Sequence record: MN894885.1
Length of the DNA: 64,000 nucleotides
Direction: 5' to 3' (one strand)
Source: Escherichia phage Ec_Makalu_001
This document shows, in pieces, positions 36,133 to 43,501 of this stretch. Under the pieces are notes generated by a model. That model worked only from the letters and a program-made list of their open reading frames with translations. It was not told where the DNA came from and made no database searches. Numbering within the stretch: the first letter of the stretch is position 1; each line of letters begins with the position of its first letter. The translations under genes were made by a program, and so were the position numbers.

Positions 36133-36435
36133 TCATATATCAAGCGTATTTTCTGGAGTATCGCCGAAAACTCTATTAACGAGATCCGCCAATACTTCAC
36201 CGTGGCATTTCTTAGGGTAGCAAGTACAACCTAAGCGCATATGTCTTAATACTTCTAAATGCGCCCGTGTTATCTCACCATTTCGAATCTTATTATACAA
36301 CCACTCTTTGTATAATGCAATAGCTTTCTCTCGTCCGTATTCTTTGGCGGTGTATGGATTTCCCCACATAGTACCACGCTGAATATTAACATCAAAATCG
36401 CTATTGTATTTGTTTACAACGCGGCATATTTTCAT
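36133..36435 (-). CDS. hypothetical protein (100 aa)
   Basis: ORF between td and nrdA; Cys/His cluster CTCYPKKCH. Confidence 0.4.
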   Translation of the reverse strand: MKICRVVNKYNSDFDVNIQRGTMWGNPYTAKEYGREKAIALYKEWLYNKIRNGEITRAHLEVLRHMRLGCTCYPKKCHGEVLADLVNRVFGDTPENTLDI

Positions 36436-36471: not shown

Positions 36472-37704
36472 TTATACTGCCATTTGAGCGGTGATTGCCG
36501 GATGGCTTTGATAGTTGTGAATTTTAAAGTCTTTCGGAGTTTTTGTCAATACCTCATCTAAAGATTTAAATTCCGGCAACTCAATTGTTGGTTTATCAAA
36601 CGGAACACGGCTTAACTGTTCCATCACTTGGTCAAAGTGATTTTTGTAAATGTGAGTATCTCCGCCGGAGAAAATCAGTTCTCCTACTTCGAGATCACAC
36701 ATTTTCGCTATGATGTGAGTTAACAGCGCATAGCTGGCGACGTTAAAGGGCAAGCCCAAAAAGCTGTCTACGCTTCGCTGAAACCACATACAAGACAGTT
36801 TACCCTCATTGACATAGAATTGCACGAACGGATGACATACACCTAATACAGCATTATGTGTTCCTTGTACGTTCCATGAGTCAATGATGATACGTCGATC
36901 CGTTGGATTGTTTTTAATTTGTTCAATCACGTTTTGTAACTGGTCTTCCCAAATCTTCGGGCGATAGACATATTCTTCATCGTCTTTAGTGCTCGATGTG
37001 TCTATGTCCATACTAGCAAAGATCGTGGTATCTGGCGCTAAAATATCCCCGCCTAGATAATCACTATCAAGCAGATAACCGAAATAACCATCATCTACCC
37101 ATTCCTGGAATCCCCACAAGCAATATGCATCATTAACAAAATTAGATTGAGTCTTCCAGTGGTCTGCTACTAAGAATTGATTATATTCAGAATCAAACTC
37201 TTCATAACGCATACCACGCCAGATAGCACATAAACGGTCTTCTGTGTCGTTGGTTGGCGTAAAGTCTTCTACCCACGGGTGTTTAAATGTATGTGTATAT
37301 TTGCTCTTAACGCGCTTAATTTTGATTTCACCGTGTGGATGAATCGGTTTGCGTCGCCACGCCATACCATACATATTGCCGACATTATAACCATTGAATC
37401 GCAAGGGATTCTTTTCTTTCATATCAAGACAGTTGCCGCGCCAAATATCAAATGCTTCCTCGTCAAACTTTCCGCGTGTAATTTCCTGTAAGCGACGGCG
37501 GTCAAGTGATCCCTCCATAAACCATAGCAATTCGCCAATTACAGAGGCTGTAGCCATCTTTTTAGTGGTCAGTAATGGGAAACCCTTGCTTAAATCAATT
37601 CGCATCTCTGTGCCGAATTTAGAGAGCGTACCTACCCCCGTTCGGTCTTCACGAGGCCAGCCATTATCAAGAACATCACGCAATAGTTTCAAATATTCTT
37701 TCAT
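36472..37704 (-). CDS. td: thymidylate synthase with large internal insertion
   Basis: 410 aa; N- and C-terminal thirds align to ThyA/T4 Td (DRTGVGT, catalytic Cys in LGVCHPFVQFY, LGLPFNVASYALL, C-terminus PKDFKIHNYQSHPAITAQMAV); ~120 extra residues between WRRKP and DRRIIIDSWN. Confidence 0.8.
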   Translation of the reverse strand: MKEYLKLLRDVLDNGWPREDRTGVGTLSKFGTEMRIDLSKGFPLLTTKKMATASVIGELLWFMEGSLDRRRLQEITRGKFDEEAFDIWRGNCLDMKEKNPLRFNGYNVGNMYGMAWRRKPIHPHGEIKIKRVKSKYTHTFKHPWVEDFTPTNDTEDRLCAIWRGMRYEEFDSEYNQFLVADHWKTQSNFVNDAYCLWGFQEWVDDGYFGYLLDSDYLGGDILAPDTTIFASMDIDTSSTKDDEEYVYRPKIWEDQLQNVIEQIKNNPTDRRIIIDSWNVQGTHNAVLGVCHPFVQFYVNEGKLSCMWFQRSVDSFLGLPFNVASYALLTHIIAKMCDLEVGELIFSGGDTHIYKNHFDQVMEQLSRVPFDKPTIELPEFKSLDEVLTKTPKDFKIHNYQSHPAITAQMAV

Positions 37705-38038: not shown

Positions 38039-38608
38039 TTACGCCTTCTTACGTTCTAAAATTTGTTCGCTGATCAGGTAATTATCAAGGAAGTAATTAT
38101 GTTCTTCTTTGGTTACAAAGTCAAAATACAATTCCTGAATCATTTCCTTAGAGATACCAACATCATATTCAAATGGATCGTTGATCCCTGAACGCTGAAC
38201 ATACGTTAACACAATACGGTCCGCAAAGTCAACCGCTTTTTCAATCAGGGAAGGTCCTCCGATAACACTTACCAAACCTTGCGTTTTCTCCAGGACTTTT
38301 AACAGATCCTTTAATTCAATTCCAGTATACACATTAGGCTGGTCGCCGTTTTTGGCTTTCGGTGTCGGCTTGCTGGCATCGGTACTAATAACCACATTAA
38401 GACGACCTTCCAGTGCTTTAGGGAGACTTTCAAAGGTATTACGTCCCATTACAACCGCCGCAAGATCAACATCTCCCATAGTGCGCATTTTAAAGTTTTC
38501 CATGTCCTTTTTGATTGGACGACCCCACGGTAAACCGCCTTTAAAACCAAAAGCCCAATTTTCATCTGACATTTTAGTGTCACCAATCGCAAATACACAT
38601 TGAATCAT
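38039..38608 (-). CDS. frd: dihydrofolate reductase
   Basis: 189 aa; DHFR motifs (N-terminal AIG, GGLPW, VMGRNTFESLP). Confidence 0.85.
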   Translation of the reverse strand: MIQCVFAIGDTKMSDENWAFGFKGGLPWGRPIKKDMENFKMRTMGDVDLAAVVMGRNTFESLPKALEGRLNVVISTDASKPTPKAKNGDQPNVYTGIELKDLLKVLEKTQGLVSVIGGPSLIEKAVDFADRIVLTYVQRSGINDPFEYDVGISKEMIQELYFDFVTKEEHNYFLDNYLISEQILERKKA

Positions 38609-38623
38609 AATATAAATCTCCCA

Positions 38624-38953
38624 TCAAATCAGTTTGAAATAGTTTTCGTTTACATTTTCTTCTGTGATTGCTGTCTTAAATTCTTGACCGTTATCCGGTG
38701 TGATGAAATAACGGTCAGAATAATCACGAAAACGTTTTAAGTGAGATACCCCAACATTAACACCATTTTCCCAAAAACGAAAGGTAATCATTTTTGGTTC
38801 ATATCGATAGTCGCTGGTTAACACAGTGCCATCACCGCGACGGGCTTCATAAACCATAATACATTCACGGTTAGCGGCTTTAATACATTCTTCAATAGTG
38901 CCACATGCGATAATACTTACTGTTTCATCTACGATTTGTTCTACAGTCCACAT
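38624..38953 (-). CDS. hypothetical protein (109 aa)
   Basis: ORF with promoter-like motif at ~38960-39010. Confidence 0.4.
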   Translation of the reverse strand: MWTVEQIVDETVSIIACGTIEECIKAANRECIMVYEARRGDGTVLTSDYRYEPKMITFRFWENGVNVGVSHLKRFRDYSDRYFITPDNGQEFKTAITEENVNENYFKLI

Positions 38954-39008: not shown

Positions 39009-39338
39009 TCAACCTTTTTGTTCCATGAAAAGCGGTGCTGTTTCTTCTTTCAGTTTAATAACTAGCGCGGAAACTTCATCAAGAAAATCTTTTTCCATAT
39101 GAGCAAGCAATGATTTAGAATCTTTGATAACTTTCAAAGAATATTCACTTAGATTTCCTTTTCCTAACAATAATGCAGGGTACACACTATGCGGTATCTC
39201 GATTTCATGATATTCACTCATAGTATAATATTTGTGAATTTTTAAATCTATATTTCTTCGTTGTACGTCTACATCAGCAATGACATACAGAAGTTCGATT
39301 TTATCACTTTTCTGGGAAAGGGTAGCATTCAAAAACAT
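39009..39338 (-). CDS. hypothetical protein (109 aa)
   Basis: ORF with promoter-like motif at ~39345-39400. Confidence 0.4.
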   Translation of the reverse strand: MFLNATLSQKSDKIELLYVIADVDVQRRNIDLKIHKYYTMSEYHEIEIPHSVYPALLLGKGNLSEYSLKVIKDSKSLLAHMEKDFLDEVSALVIKLKEETAPLFMEQKG

Positions 39339-39383
39339 TGTTAATCCTCCGTTGTTTCGATGAGTTCATTATACACTATTGGG

Positions 39384-40607
39384 TTACGCTGTCAACTCTT
39401 TTTCAAAAGATTTTACGATATACATGATAGTGCTCAATTCAGACGGCGCTACTGTTTCGGTGTAGCCATCCGGCATATCTTCTTTCGAGATATAGGAAGT
39501 CTTGCCTTTCATCGCTTCCTTGATCTTGTTCTCTAATTCTAAGATCTTTTGACCGTCTTGTAAAGTCAATTCATAAAAGATCTCGTGACCGAACTTTGAA
39601 ACACGAGATTGGTTTCTCATGCGCTCATGTGTTTCTTTGTTTGTTATTCCAAATTTCACGCCAACAAAGGAATCATTGTTGGTTAATTTCTGTATATAAA
39701 GAGTTCCTGTCTTTAATGCCTGATAACCATGCTTAGAACACAACGGGCAGCGTGTTCCGCGATTAACAAAATTATCAATAGTTACATCCCATTCATGGTT
39801 ACGTTCGCATGTCAGAAGTATTCTTGTTAATGCACCTTTCCACTTTCCTGAAATCCCAATAAATTTTAGTCTGTTGGTTTCGCATATTTTTTCAATTTGT
39901 TTTAATCGGTCACTTTTTGTTATTGGTGCTGTTCCGCTACATTTGCGACACCGACGACCTAGTTTGAACTTATCATAACTTTGTTCGTAAATGTGATTAT
40001 TAGGACACTCAAATTTAAGTTTAGTTTTTGTTCCTCTCCATTCCCCAATTATACCCAAAAATTTATAATCTCCTTTATTTTCATTTATATAAGATAAGGA
40101 ATCTTCTTTATCATGCATCTTGCCCCCGTTACATAAAGGACATCTTGTTTTTTGATGAATGAAATCTGTATATGTTGGTTGGTATGTGTGTCCGTTTGTA
40201 CAGTTCATAATGAGTCTTGTTCTGCTATTTTTATACTCCCCACCAACAAAACCAACAAATACATCGTTTGTTTCTTGTTTTATTCTTTCTATCACATTGT
40301 TTGGGTTTAATCTTTGAGAATCAACCACACATTTCTTACACGAAACTTTTTTCCTGATATTTGCTAGAGTTGATGTGTATTCATGCTTGTTATTACATAA
40401 TATAAGAGCTTTTGTTTTGAGACCAGACCATTCTCCAACAAACCCCATGAAAGAATAACCAACTTCCAAACATGAATTTTTTACAACATTTTCCCAATAG
40501 AAGGGAGTTTTCGTGTTTCCTTTTATTTCTATACGAATCTCATGTGCTTGACGTACTAACATATTTTTATCCTCCGTTGTTTCGATGTGTGTATTATACA
40601 TTACCAC
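39384..40607 (-). CDS. protein with four tandem zinc-ribbon modules and C-terminal GIY-YIG-like (T5orf172-type) domain; putative homing-endonuclease-like
   Basis: 407 aa; four ~55-aa repeats each F/I-x-G-x-x-G-E/K-W ... C-x-x-x-H ... C-x-x-C; C-terminus LYIQKL...VGVKFGITNKETHERMRNQ. Confidence 0.45.
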   Translation of the reverse strand: MVMYNTHIETTEDKNMLVRQAHEIRIEIKGNTKTPFYWENVVKNSCLEVGYSFMGFVGEWSGLKTKALILCNNKHEYTSTLANIRKKVSCKKCVVDSQRLNPNNVIERIKQETNDVFVGFVGGEYKNSRTRLIMNCTNGHTYQPTYTDFIHQKTRCPLCNGGKMHDKEDSLSYINENKGDYKFLGIIGEWRGTKTKLKFECPNNHIYEQSYDKFKLGRRCRKCSGTAPITKSDRLKQIEKICETNRLKFIGISGKWKGALTRILLTCERNHEWDVTIDNFVNRGTRCPLCSKHGYQALKTGTLYIQKLTNNDSFVGVKFGITNKETHERMRNQSRVSKFGHEIFYELTLQDGQKILELENKIKEAMKGKTSYISKEDMPDGYTETVAPSELSTIMYIVKSFEKELTA

Positions 40608-40648
40608 ATCAGCACGTCAACACCTTTTTCATAAAATTTTAGGCAATA

Positions 40649-40672
40649 AAAAAGCCTCCCCGAAGGGAGGCT
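40649..40672 (-). terminator. rho-independent terminator after gene 32
   Basis: GCCTCCC-CGAA-GGGAGGC followed by T-run on minus strand. Confidence 0.6.
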
Positions 40673-40682
40673 TTAAAATTCA

Positions 40683-41630
40683 TTACATCGCTAACAGAGA
40701 ATCCAGGTCATCCAGATCAGAAGCGGAGGAAGTACCGCCACTCAGGTCCAGAGATGCCATCAGGTCATCAGCGGAAGAATCTAACGCCGTGCTAGCGGCG
40801 GTAGTACCAGCGTCGAATGCATTCATCTGTGCGTCAAAATCGTCAAGCTGGCTGTTAATCGCTGCCGCAGCACTGGAAGCCGCAGCACCAGCTACCATAG
40901 ACACGCCCATAGTTTTCTTAAATTTGGTTTCCAGTTCGTCAAACGGTTTAAACTGGCTAGGTGCTACAATCTCACCCAAATCAACCATGTTTTCCATCAG
41001 ATATTTCTGGTATGCTTCGTCTTCAATTTTCGGAAGCTGTGATTGCTGCATGAAACGAGAATCATCATAGTTCTGGTGTTTATCAACCTTCTTAGCTTTC
41101 AGGAGGAAGTTAGCGCCAGAGAACACACAAGTTACATCTACCGGAACTTCGCCCATGTCGGTATTCACGTTCACCATCGCAACGATCTTATCATAAATTT
41201 TCTGACCGAAGCGGAATTTAAATACCTTGCCTTCGTTTTCTGGTGCTTGAGGATCTTTCAGTACCAGAATGTTTGCGTAGTAAGACGCTTTACGCTTAAT
41301 CAGTTGCCATTCGGTTTTATCGGTATTGTACAAATCTTTTTCGTTAATATATTTGCACACAGGGCAAGAATCAAAATCACCGTGGGTGCTGGAGCAGTTT
41401 TCCCAATACCATTTTCCATTAACTTTGAAGGAATGGTTTACCAGTTTCACAATCGGCAGACCGTCTTCTGTCTTAGACGGCAGGAAGCGAATCAGGGCTT
41501 CACCGTTACCTGCTGCATCAGTCTTAATCTTCCACTCTTTCGGGTCTTCTTTGGAGAAACCGTTGCCACCTTTCAGTGCGGCCAGTTGAGCTTGCAGTTT
41601 GGAAGAATCTTGGCGTTTAAACATATTCAC
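40683..41630 (-). CDS. 32: single-stranded DNA-binding protein gp32
   Basis: 315 aa; strong similarity to T4 gp32 ([22 protein letters not shown], acidic C-terminus). Confidence 0.9.
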
Positions 41631-42901: not shown

Positions 42902-43501
42902 TTAACCCTCTTTAGTCATTAATTGAAAACCACGTTCAGCTTTTGAGATTTCGCTAGGACGTAAATCATCATCTACATATTCTAGCATCATTTCTCTGAT
43001 AATGTCAAGTGCTTTTTCATCACCTGATTTTAACTCGAACTCAAGTTCATAATGAGCAGTGTCGCCCAATCCTTCGCCTACTTTGCCATAATAGAAAGTG
43101 TCTTTGCACATTTCCACTATACCACAACCCATATCTAGAGTCAATGACTTGCGATATGTCATTACTTGCATTATTGTAGTGATATAGTCTGAGTTTACCC
43201 CTAGACTATCAATAAAATGGACGAACTCATCCCAATTTGAAAATGTCATTTCCTCGCGGTTGAATAGTCCAGATTCATTATCACCCATTTTGACCATGAT
43301 CTCTGATTTTCTACAGTCAAGTCGTGCATAAATTCCTTTTTGACGTAGCGCATGGTCTTCGGTATCATAATAAAATTCGTGTTTTAATATGTTATCTCGA
43401 TCTACGATATTATAACCGTCATACATTGCCACCCACAAATCACAGATGGTTTCGACGCCAATTTGTGAGTGTGCATAGTATTTTAACTCAAGTTCTTTCA
43501 T
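42902..43501 (-). CDS. CYTH-like (triphosphate tunnel metalloenzyme) domain protein
   Basis: 199 aa; N-terminal ExExK (ELELK), later acidic strand YELEFELK; absent from the canonical T4 dsbA-rnh interval. Confidence 0.4.
   Translation of the reverse strand: MKELELKYYAHSQIGVETICDLWVAMYDGYNIVDRDNILKHEFYYDTEDHALRQKGIYARLDCRKSEIMVKMGDNESGLFNREEMTFSNWDEFVHFIDSLGVNSDYITTIMQVMTYRKSLTLDMGCGIVEMCKDTFYYGKVGEGLGDTAHYELEFELKSGDEKALDIIREMMLEYVDDDLRPSEISKAERGFQLMTKEG

Follow-up and report, generated by a model that had tools for sequence, protein, structure and literature searches.

A probable T5orf172-class homing endonuclease gene with four zinc modules beside gene 32 of an RB49-like phage

The T5orf172-class homing endonuclease genes (HEGs) of ICP1 (such as gp174 and gp165), T5-like, Plateaulake and VpaJT-like phages encode N-terminal zinc modules and a C-terminal T5orf172 nuclease domain (Netter 2021, PMC8096241; Barth 2023, PMC10448857). 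The N-terminal part is built from repeated domains of the CapR/DUF723/DUF4379 type in ICP1, T5-like and other phages (PMC8096241; PMC10448857), and zinc-finger domains occur in 87% of 229 T5orf172 HEGs surveyed, many of them repeated (PMC10448857). The ICP1, T5-like, Plateaulake and VpaJT-like genes are free-standing, lie beside essential replication genes, and exchange arrays and nucleases relative to one another. T4 itself has no T5orf172 genes, according to Barth et al. (PMC10448857).

Three further systems bear on this architecture. CapR of PLE, a Vibrio cholerae phage satellite, is a stand-alone repressor with a single PF21817 module and no nuclease; it cannot bind DNA without its metal ligands, all four Cys being needed in vitro and in vivo, and zinc-dependent, sequence-specific DNA binding has been shown only for this protein (PMC8096241). 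Odn of ICP1 (gp88) joins a C-terminal T5orf172 nuclease to an N-terminal sequence-specific DNA-binding domain (PMC8263062). It is a proven nuclease that is inactivated by E180A (Glu to Ala), and it lacks the helix 1 His/Tyr but keeps the Arg and the Glu (PMC8263062). Odn carries RepA_N instead of zinc modules and serves as a domesticated anti-satellite defence, not as a homing element. The T4 enzymes SegG, other Seg proteins and I-TevI have the catalytic fold of the GIY-YIG superfamily, and a free-standing gene lies beside gene 32 in T4 as well. Seg and I-TevI proteins show a beads-on-a-string modularity that includes a zinc finger (PMC2988022).

Here we analyse a gene with these features in a 64,000-nt stretch (the window) of Escherichia phage Ec_Makalu_001 (MN894885.1), an RB49-like, T4-type coliphage (Krischvirus) with 97% DNA identity to Krischvirus GEC-3S. 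We read it as a free-standing T5orf172-class HEG, with a probability of roughly 0.7. The gene is a divergent member of an endonuclease class described in 2021–2023, and a real but fairly ordinary mobile element rather than a new kind of system. The first-pass annotation had considered the architecture possibly undescribed, but zinc-finger repeats followed by T5orf172 are typical of this class (PMC8096241; PMC10448857). It had correctly noted that the domain order is the reverse of that in I-TevI and Seg proteins, whose nuclease is N-terminal with canonical GIY...YIG motifs; here the nuclease is C-terminal and the second motif reads KFG. Compared with the ICP1 and T5-like HEGs, this gene resides in a T4-type myovirus, its nuclease subfamily is divergent, falling below the Pfam thresholds of the published survey, and its expression is apparently driven by an early promoter.

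Table 1 Features of the endonuclease locus in the window. Ligand positions (C71–C290) are counted in the 407-aa numbering.
Feature	Position	Strand	Basis or remark
Endonuclease CDS	39384..40562	-	392 aa + stop; ATG, GGAGGA RBS, relatives' annotation, homologue starts
Zinc module 1 (CapR-homology/DUF4379 treble-clef type)	40320..40493	-	Ligands C71, H75, C90, C93
Zinc module 2	40122..40298	-	Ligands C136, H140, C156, C159
Zinc module 3	39930..40100	-	Ligands C201, H205, C220, C223
Zinc module 4	39729..39902	-	Ligands C267, H271, C287, C290; best Pfam CapR stretch (residues 236-291)
Putative T5orf172/MUG113-type GIY-YIG nuclease domain, C-terminal (117 aa)	39387..39737	-	Relatives, consensus, fold, invariant residues
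Sigma-70-type early promoter of the endonuclease gene (predicted)	40593..40620	-	TTGACG-16-TATAAT, 11/12 matches
Leader/RBS repeat CATCGAAACAACGGAGGAT, upstream copy	40569..40587	-	Exact-copy search
Intrinsic terminator of gene 32	40651..40674	-	10-bp stem, then T run; directly upstream of the promoter
Promoter of the downstream 109-aa ORF	39368..39395	-	TTGACA-16-TATAAT, 12/12 matches
Leader/RBS repeat CATCGAAACAACGGAGGAT, downstream copy	39344..39362	-	Serves ORF 39009..39338

The neighbourhood includes gene 32, gene 59, frd, td and nrdA. The gene had been placed between frd and gene 32, and it does lie directly downstream of gene 32 (40683..41630), but it does not adjoin frd (38039..38608), from which two 109-aa ORFs separate it. 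T4 segG occupies a different position, on the opposite flank of gene 32, with gene 59 as its other neighbour (PMC2988022). The open reading frame 39384..40607 on the minus strand is real and present in the program-made ORF list. Translation almost certainly begins at the ATG at 40562 (M16, giving 392 aa) and not at the GTG at 40607, because a GGAGGA RBS sits 7 nt 5′ of this ATG, the -10 box (40593-40598) of the promoter serving the gene lies downstream of the GTG, 1179-nt CDSs are annotated at this gene in the GEC-3S, G37-3, AV108 and Skers records, and homologues begin with MLVRQ. No paralogue of the protein was found in the 64-kb window by tblastn.

All four zinc modules claimed at first reading are present, each with the Cys/His/Cys/Cys arrangement C-x3-H...C-x2-C. 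A module does span about 55 aa, as had been stated for the repeat, but the period is 65–66 aa owing to a linker of about 10 aa. In the full protein, Pfam detects the CapR homology domain PF21817 in four stretches (E 1.3e-29, 102.6 bits against a cutoff of 24.2) and PF14311 (DUF4379; E 2.5e-11, 44.1 bits against a cutoff of 24.5), scores that place the zinc repeat far beyond chance. When the four modules are aligned to one another, F, G, G, T, C, H, C and C are invariant, and 34 homologues preserve the ligand columns with little or no variation. The PF21817 module is homologous to that of PLE CapR, but the CHCC set differs from the CxxC...CxC of CapR (PMC8096241), the first zinc knuckle being C-x3-H where the described CapR set is all Cys. 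A Foldseek search of the PDB with the full-length model (pTM 0.35, beads on a string) returned only noise, and no solved CapR-type structure. By homology to CapR, the four modules probably bind zinc and DNA.

The nuclease assignment of the C-terminal domain is carried by relatives, family consensus and fold only. Neither the full protein nor the isolated 117-aa domain matches PF10544, PF13455 or PF01541 at E<10 in Pfam, NCBIfam yields no nuclease family for either, and none of the three Pfam families is among the precomputed domains of 59 close homologues (0/59). Searches of PDB sequences with phmmer and a family profile gave nothing meaningful, and a word-indexed homologue search with the domain gave only eight close matches, all without annotation. 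Because the domain has no Pfam match of its own, a naive Pfam scan would have dismissed the T5orf172/GIY-YIG likeness proposed in the first-pass annotation. Its relatives and the family consensus do match. Among 1.84 billion representatives, phmmer found 439 relatives of the domain, C-terminal in every one, with E values of 1e-9 to 1e-18 in the set scanned. When 53 diverse C-terminal domains were scanned alone, 28 matched MUG113, 15 matched T5orf172 and two matched GIY-YIG. Against PF10544, whose cutoff is 20 bits, the majority consensus of the family (alignment A4) reaches 30.5 bits and covers profile positions 1-98 of 101; against PF13455, with a cutoff of 22.3, it reaches 29.9 bits. PHROG 681 names the family 'endonuclease', near-identical proteins in GenBank/RefSeq are labelled 'endonuclease' or 'putative GIY-YIG nuclease family protein', and the domain matches phage 184E37.3a of the Barth study at E 7e-17.

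The AF2 model of the C-terminal domain is compact and confident (pLDDT 96.1, pTM 0.87). Its beta-beta-alpha-beta-alpha-alpha topology is that of the GIY-YIG fold, in which a motif-bearing beta hairpin is followed by alpha-beta-alpha-alpha, and its BFVD matches carry the names homing endonuclease, GIY-YIG and T5 Orf172. Eight residues (Y289, K303, G305, R314, E344, G366, E369 and T370, 392-aa numbering) are invariant in 129 sequences; Y289, R314, E344 and E369 are also invariant in the 53 diverse sequences. From motif order and secondary structure, rather than residue-level superposition, Y289, R314 and E369 probably correspond to Y6, R27 and E75 of I-TevI and to E180 of Odn. The KFG in place of YIG counts against the nuclease assignment, and it forms part of a subfamily signature, KFGIT ... 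PDGYTET. Taken together, sequence comparison and modelling support placing the domain in the T5orf172/MUG113 branch of the GIY-YIG superfamily, as a divergent subfamily.

The gene is bracketed by regulatory repeats. The gene 32 terminator, annotated in GEC-3S and G37-3, and the endonuclease promoter, annotated in GEC-3S, together resemble a promoter-early stem-loop (PeSL) element (PMC2839356); the upstream flank has both stem-loop and promoter, and the downstream flank has a promoter and leader repeat without a stem-loop. The -35 box of the downstream promoter falls in the final codons of the endonuclease ORF, and T4 seg and mob genes likewise have a neighbour's promoter embedded in the endonuclease ORF (PMC2988022). 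Only two exact copies of CATCGAAACAACGGAGGAT occur in the 64 kb, against 0.03 expected, and the downstream one is identical to the sole copy at the empty site of MIZ6. A third, diverged copy of TATAAT-N5-CATCGAAACAACGGAGGAT precedes the next ORF, and members of the promoter-leader motif family number 11 across the window, where 0.55 would be expected. We considered the 19-nt flanking direct repeat as a target-site duplication and rejected this, since it belongs to a genome-wide promoter/leader family and is present in one copy at the empty site. With a predicted sigma-70-type promoter, the endonuclease gene is probably expressed early.

Comparison across related phages shows the gene to be polymorphic at one exact site. 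In 58 Krischvirus records, the site is intact and empty in 23 and interrupted at the start codon in 35, with divergence right after ATGTT; the insertion junctions were read in MIZ6 and FL04. The allele of the window occurs in seven records at ≥97% identity. These seven, together with six other alleles (FL04, Cognac, Phi1, W115, kaaroe and RB49), make up the 13 occupied records inspected, all of which encode a T5orf172/CapR-type endonuclease. The six other alleles keep the nuclease domain, with 85-94% DNA identity over their last 320-355 nt, and four of them keep the first ~27 nt, but their zinc arrays (3-5 modules each) are unrelated and defy alignment at the DNA level. Dozens of metagenomic variants are likewise nearly identical over the 3′ ~75 codons.

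The gene body is more conserved than its surroundings, being 99-100% identical in GEC-3S, G37-3, AV108 and Skers against 94-97% in the flanks. The backbone of the window, which has an extra orf109a and a DUF4326 ORF, is closer to the endonuclease-free phage SSG23. The contrast between body and flanks, and the pairing of this allele with an SSG23-like backbone, indicate horizontal exchange of the gene apart from the sequence around it. Whether orf109a is present, between the same promoter-leader repeats, does not depend on the endonuclease, and in many phage lineages the endonuclease family occurs in several copies and with a patchy distribution. The single exact presence/absence site and the conserved body bear out the homing-endonuclease behaviour beside gene 32 that had been suggested.

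In the mechanism we favour, the four CapR-type modules, arranged like beads on a string, would jointly read a long DNA target, and the C-terminal domain would cut nearby DNA with a conserved Tyr/Arg/Glu centre and a divalent metal. During mixed infection, a relative without this allele would be cut in the neighbourhood of gene 32, the promoter and orf109. The break would be repaired by recombination with an endonuclease-carrying genome, which would transfer the gene and so bias its inheritance. The cassette sits precisely on the start codon of the ORF that follows it. It uses the predicted early promoter, leader and RBS of that ORF and brings a replacement promoter, leader and RBS at its own 3′ end, which would keep the downstream neighbour expressed.

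Some features count against this homing reading, including the apparent early sigma-70 promoter, whereas HEG-specific promoters of T4 are middle or late and never early (PMC2988022), and the unrelated zinc arrays at one site, which run contrary to homing in a simple 'one site, one enzyme' form. It also counts against homing that the sequence does not allow a cleavage site or target to be named. An Odn-like domesticated competition nuclease would accommodate the promoter and the arrays: a constant T5orf172 chassis at a fixed, early-expressed locus would exchange its zinc arrays, so that each lineage cuts different foreign DNA from co-infecting relatives, satellites or host elements. The constancy of the nuclease domain in the six other alleles and in the metagenomic 3′ ends is in keeping with this, and there is precedent for T5orf172 with a swapped DNA-binding domain (PMC8263062; PMC10448857). 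However, 23 of the 58 relatives have no gene here, as expected of a dispensable selfish element, array swapping is already reported as normal evolution of T5orf172 HEGs (PMC10448857), and no target or satellite is known for Krischvirus. PADLOC matched no family at E<=1, leaving the defence-nuclease alternative of the first-pass annotation without support. We consider domestication unlikely. Similarly doubtful is a specificity-swapping locus, in which the near-invariant nuclease domain, with the neighbour's promoter, and the conserved 5′ end would frame exchanged and duplicated arrays of 3-5 modules. Were this so, the population would hold a repertoire of early-expressed nucleases with varied targets for competition between phages or with satellites, unlike classical T4 homing enzymes.

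The flanking repeats, found genome-wide, could allow homologous recombination to move the cassette with no nuclease involved (PMC2839356), and this too counts against homing. In its strict form, the cassette would spread only by recombination at the PeSL-like promoter/leader repeats, the nuclease being uninvolved and having another role or none. The bracketing of the gene by TATAAT-N5-CATCGAAACAACGGAGGAT, the excess of motif copies and the independent coming and going of orf109a fit such a process, and PeSL-flanked ORFs form recombination mini-circles in RB49 and phi1 (PMC2839356). Catalytic residues that are invariant over 129 diverged members nevertheless imply selection on nuclease activity, and the multi-copy, patchy family is HEG-like. 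Repeat recombination is moreover compatible with homing, as the mechanisms are not exclusive; as the sole explanation we find it improbable. It is more improbable still that the protein has lost nuclease activity and, like CapR, binds DNA as a regulator to repress or adjust transcription around gene 32. CapR did arise as a repressor from HEG zinc domains of this type (PMC8096241), and the sequence of the domain falls below the Pfam nuclease models, but CapR wholly lacks the T5orf172 domain, which here is full-length and confidently folded with an invariant Tyr/Arg/Glu/Glu set.

The locus extends the range of this class, since it shows T5orf172/CapR-type endonucleases to be common among phages of a T4-type lineage (35 of 58 Krischvirus records interrupted at this site, with such a gene in all 13 of these inspected). 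The published survey applied Pfam thresholds, which this divergent subfamily escapes; for annotation, the lesson is that a nuclease domain missed by a direct Pfam scan can be recovered with a family consensus or a structure model. Natural alleles that combine one nuclease domain with many zinc arrays, in easily crossed coliphages, may also offer an experimental system for studying how GIY-YIG-type enzymes are directed to their targets by arrays of several zinc modules.

The closest named relatives are RB49p240 and phi1 ORF240, alleles at the same locus with nuclease domains 80-86% identical in amino acids, and T5p137, which shares the C-terminal domain behind two CapR modules and is 34% identical over 244 aa (E 3e-39). 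Their zinc arrays differ from that of the window, with five or two modules. The three proteins are without experimental characterisation, and ORF240 is absent from the homing endonuclease list of a 2010 comparison of RB49 and phi1 (PMC2839356). We rejected T5p137 as the name-giving T5 ORF172; it too fails to match PF10544, and the kinship is one of subfamily only. The GenBank note of T5p137 reads 'similar to phage RB49 RB49p240 protein'.

The open reading frame (ORF) recognized at 39384..40607 in the first-pass annotation is present in the ORF list. The gene's promoter (TTGACG-16-TATAAT, 40620-40593) has its -10 box downstream of this ORF's GTG start. An ATG at 40562 has a GGAGGA ribosome-binding site (RBS) 7 nt upstream, and in four near-identical database genes the annotated length is 1179 nt. 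Together these point to a protein that most likely starts at this ATG and is 392 aa long. Four Cys/His/Cys/Cys modules are indeed present, with a period of 65-66 aa rather than the ~55 aa originally claimed. Alignment of the four modules leaves F, G, G, T, C, H, C and C invariant, the last four being the predicted zinc ligands. Two Pfam families, PF21817 (CapR homology domain, E 1.3e-29) and DUF4379 ("probable treble clef zinc finger", E 2.5e-11), each match four stretches of the protein, and PHROG 681 ("endonuclease") matches it at E 1e-99.

Features of the endonuclease region and predicted zinc ligands of the endonuclease protein
Feature	Position	Strand	Remark
CYTH-domain ORF	42902..43501	-	
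Gene 32	40683..41630	-	gene order in window
orf109a	39009..39338	-	109 aa; unrelated to the other 109-aa ORF
orf109b	38624..38953	-	109 aa; unrelated to the other 109-aa ORF
frd	38039..38608	-	gene order in window
Thymidylate synthase	36472..37704	-	410 aa
DUF4326 ORF	36133..36435	-	100 aa; between nrdA and td
TATAAT-N5-CATCGAAAC(A/G)A sites, e.g.	18800, 19578, 22919, 31001, 31282, 31561	-	
TATAAT-N5-CATCGAAAC(A/G)A sites, e.g. (further)	33825, 38969, 39352, 40577, 58151	-	
Zinc module 1	C71/H75/C90/C93		407-aa numbering
Zinc module 2	C136/H140/C156/C159		407-aa numbering
Zinc module 3	C201/H205/C220/C223		407-aa numbering
Zinc module 4	C267/H271/C287/C290		407-aa numbering

The C-terminal segment had been likened to the T5orf172/GIY-YIG superfamily, a resemblance supported by Pfam matches of relatives, a consensus, the fold and invariant residues. 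The direct Pfam scan proposed for PF10544 and GIY-YIG was negative: neither the full protein nor the isolated 117-aa domain matched GIY-YIG, T5orf172 or MUG113 at E<10. The 59 homologues retrieved by a word-indexed search had none of these domains among their precomputed matches, and the PDB held no sequence match. Searched exhaustively with phmmer, 1.84 billion representatives yielded 439 proteins with the C-terminal domain, which is C-terminal in every case. Scans of 53 diverse domains in isolation gave 28 matches to MUG113, 15 to T5orf172 and 2 to GIY-YIG; for full-length relatives (n = 129) the counts were 49, 20 and 2. The majority consensus of the domain alignment matched PF10544 end to end (30.5 bits, gathering score 20 bits; profile positions 1-98 of 101) and PF13455 at 29.9 bits. 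AlphaFold2 on the same alignment gave a beta-beta-alpha-beta-alpha-alpha topology (pLDDT 96.1, pTM 0.87), and Foldseek against BFVD retrieved phage proteins with the UniProt names CapR-homology, homing endonuclease, GIY-YIG and "T5 Orf172 DNA-binding domain". Y289, K303, G305, R314, E344, G366, E369 and T370 (392-aa numbering) are invariant across 129 sequences; they provide the strand-1 Tyr, helix-1 Arg and acidic residues that an active GIY-YIG-type centre should have, and are putative equivalents of residues in I-TevI and Odn. In the second motif, KFG stands in place of YIG. The T5orf172 domain of ICP1 Odn is a demonstrated nuclease, in which E180A abolishes cleavage (PMC8263062). In all, 274 phage records contain this domain subfamily, among them T5-like, jumbo, Vibrio and Aeromonas phages.

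As the first-pass annotation remarked, the domain order is opposite to that of I-TevI and Seg proteins; its suggestion of an undescribed architecture does not stand. Netter et al. (2021) showed that a satellite repressor, CapR, binds DNA through a four-Cys zinc finger and is homologous to N-terminal domains of ICP1 proteins whose C-terminal domain is T5orf172; they suggested that these ICP1 proteins are homing endonucleases (PMC8096241). Barth et al. (2023) surveyed 229 T5orf172 homing endonuclease genes. In 87% of them a CapR, DUF723 or related DUF zinc-finger domain precedes the nuclease, frequently more than once ("beads on a string"), and recombination between arrays and nuclease domains is modular; according to these authors, T5orf172 genes are absent from T4 (PMC10448857). 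Zinc modules followed by T5orf172 are thus standard for the class, of which this endonuclease is a divergent new member. Its nuclease subfamily would have escaped the Pfam-threshold screen of that survey. Near-identical proteins are labelled "endonuclease" in RefSeq (GEC-3S, RB49, Phi1) or "putative GIY-YIG nuclease family protein" (Skers). T5p137 of phage T5 has two CapR modules and the same C-terminal domain (34% identity, E 3e-39), and its GenBank note reads "similar to phage RB49 RB49p240 protein".

Over 38-42 kb the window shares 97% identity with Enterobacteria phage GEC-3S, and 58 Krischvirus records (RB49-like, Straboviridae) match this region. The minus-strand order is RNase H, CYTH-domain ORF, dsbA, gene 33, gene 59, gene 32, endonuclease ORF, orf109a, orf109b, frd, a small ORF, td and nrdA. 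In the endonuclease-free phage MIZ6, a single early promoter comes after the gene 32 terminator, and then the leader CATCGAAACAACGGAGGAT, an RBS and the orf109a ATG; in the window these same elements, from terminator to RBS, precede the endonuclease ORF instead. A second promoter (TTGACA-16-TATAAT, 12/12 matches) lies in the 3′ end of the endonuclease ORF, its -35 box within the last codons, and a second, identical leader/RBS precedes orf109a. The proposed comparison across related phages, run as a census with the 191-nt empty-site sequence, found this site uninterrupted in 23 of 58 records; the other 35 diverge directly after the ATGTT of the start codon. Insertion thus took place exactly at the start codon of the neighbouring gene, whose expression signals the element restores, on the principle of the promoters embedded in T4 seg and mob genes (PMC2988022).

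The repeated leader is not a target-site duplication, as the window has TATAAT-N5-CATCGAAAC at 11 places (0.55 expected), with a third copy ahead of orf109b. In the form TATAAT-N5-CATCGAAAC(A/G)A, an early promoter with a conserved leader, it marks 11 minus-strand sites. It is probably the early promoter/PeSL (promoter-early stem-loop) family of RB49-type phages. The same repeats bracket orf109a, which is present in the window, MIZ6, SSG23, FL04 and Cognac and absent from GEC-3S, G37-3, AV108, Skers, RB49, Phi1, W115 and kaaroe, independently of the endonuclease.

Seven records carry the window allele at ≥97% protein identity. Identity to GEC-3S, G37-3, AV108 and Skers is 99-100% over the gene body (39750-40500) and lower in the flanks, at 94-97% (40500-41000) and 94% (39250-39500). 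All four lack orf109a and the DUF4326 ORF, both of which endonuclease-free SSG23 shares with the window at 97-99% identity. The endonuclease has therefore been exchanged independently of the backbone. Other alleles at this site, in FL04, Cognac, Phi1, W115, kaaroe and RB49, encode 338-485 aa with 3-5 zinc modules. Their DNA homology to the window covers the last 320-355 nt (nuclease domain, 85-94% identity), with the first ~27 nt also kept in four of the six; their zinc arrays cannot be aligned to the window at the DNA level. Many metagenomic variants are almost identical over the last ~75 codons. The window has no paralogue of the gene; relatives have up to three copies per genome. Adjacent, near-identical zinc modules of the FL04 allele (locus L003, 2430-2830) hold two copies of ...YKTRILEICETENLIFLGFVGEWKGC..., and all three modules of the W115 allele (locus L007, ORF 1546-2562) are alike, which indicates recent tandem duplication inside the arrays.

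Exchange independent of the backbone and a single insertion site in 35 of 58 records support the original homing-endonuclease idea, and we favour a free-standing T5orf172 homing endonuclease (probability about 0.7). The putative early product would bind zinc and read an extended DNA site through its four modules, and the GIY-YIG-type domain would cut a co-infecting relative without this allele near gene 32; the cut genome would acquire the cassette through repair. A rather unlikely alternative is an Odn-like nuclease domesticated for competition, its specificity being swappable. Arbiol et al. proposed that ORFs of RB49 and phi1 are shuffled by recombination at early promoter/PeSL elements (PMC2839356); spread purely through promoter-repeat recombination seems improbable, and such recombination is compatible with homing. 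We consider a nuclease-dead CapR-like regulator least probable of all, given the invariant catalytic residues.

The DUF4326 ORF, whose SSG23 copy is 99-100% identical, is a second small indel cassette near the endonuclease gene. In Skers (MW748999; locus L013, 7335-7931), an HNH homing endonuclease is annotated where T4 has segG, between genes 32 and 59, so both sides of gene 32 are endonuclease insertion sites in the genus. Residues 2-410 of the thymidylate synthase cover the whole 266-position ThyA Pfam profile, so the protein contains an insert of about 140 aa; annotations in RB49, GEC-3S and other Krischviruses show this long form as well. Within td, 36500..37000 is mosaic, with 79-87% identity to GEC-3S and Skers and 96-98% to G37-3, AV108 and SSG23. 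The CYTH-domain gene, annotated as adenylate cyclase in one record, contains a stretch (43000..43500) 66-90% identical to GEC-3S, G37-3, Skers and SSG23, with flanks at 95-100%, and 97-98% identical to AV108; it looks like a local replacement or fast-evolving patch.
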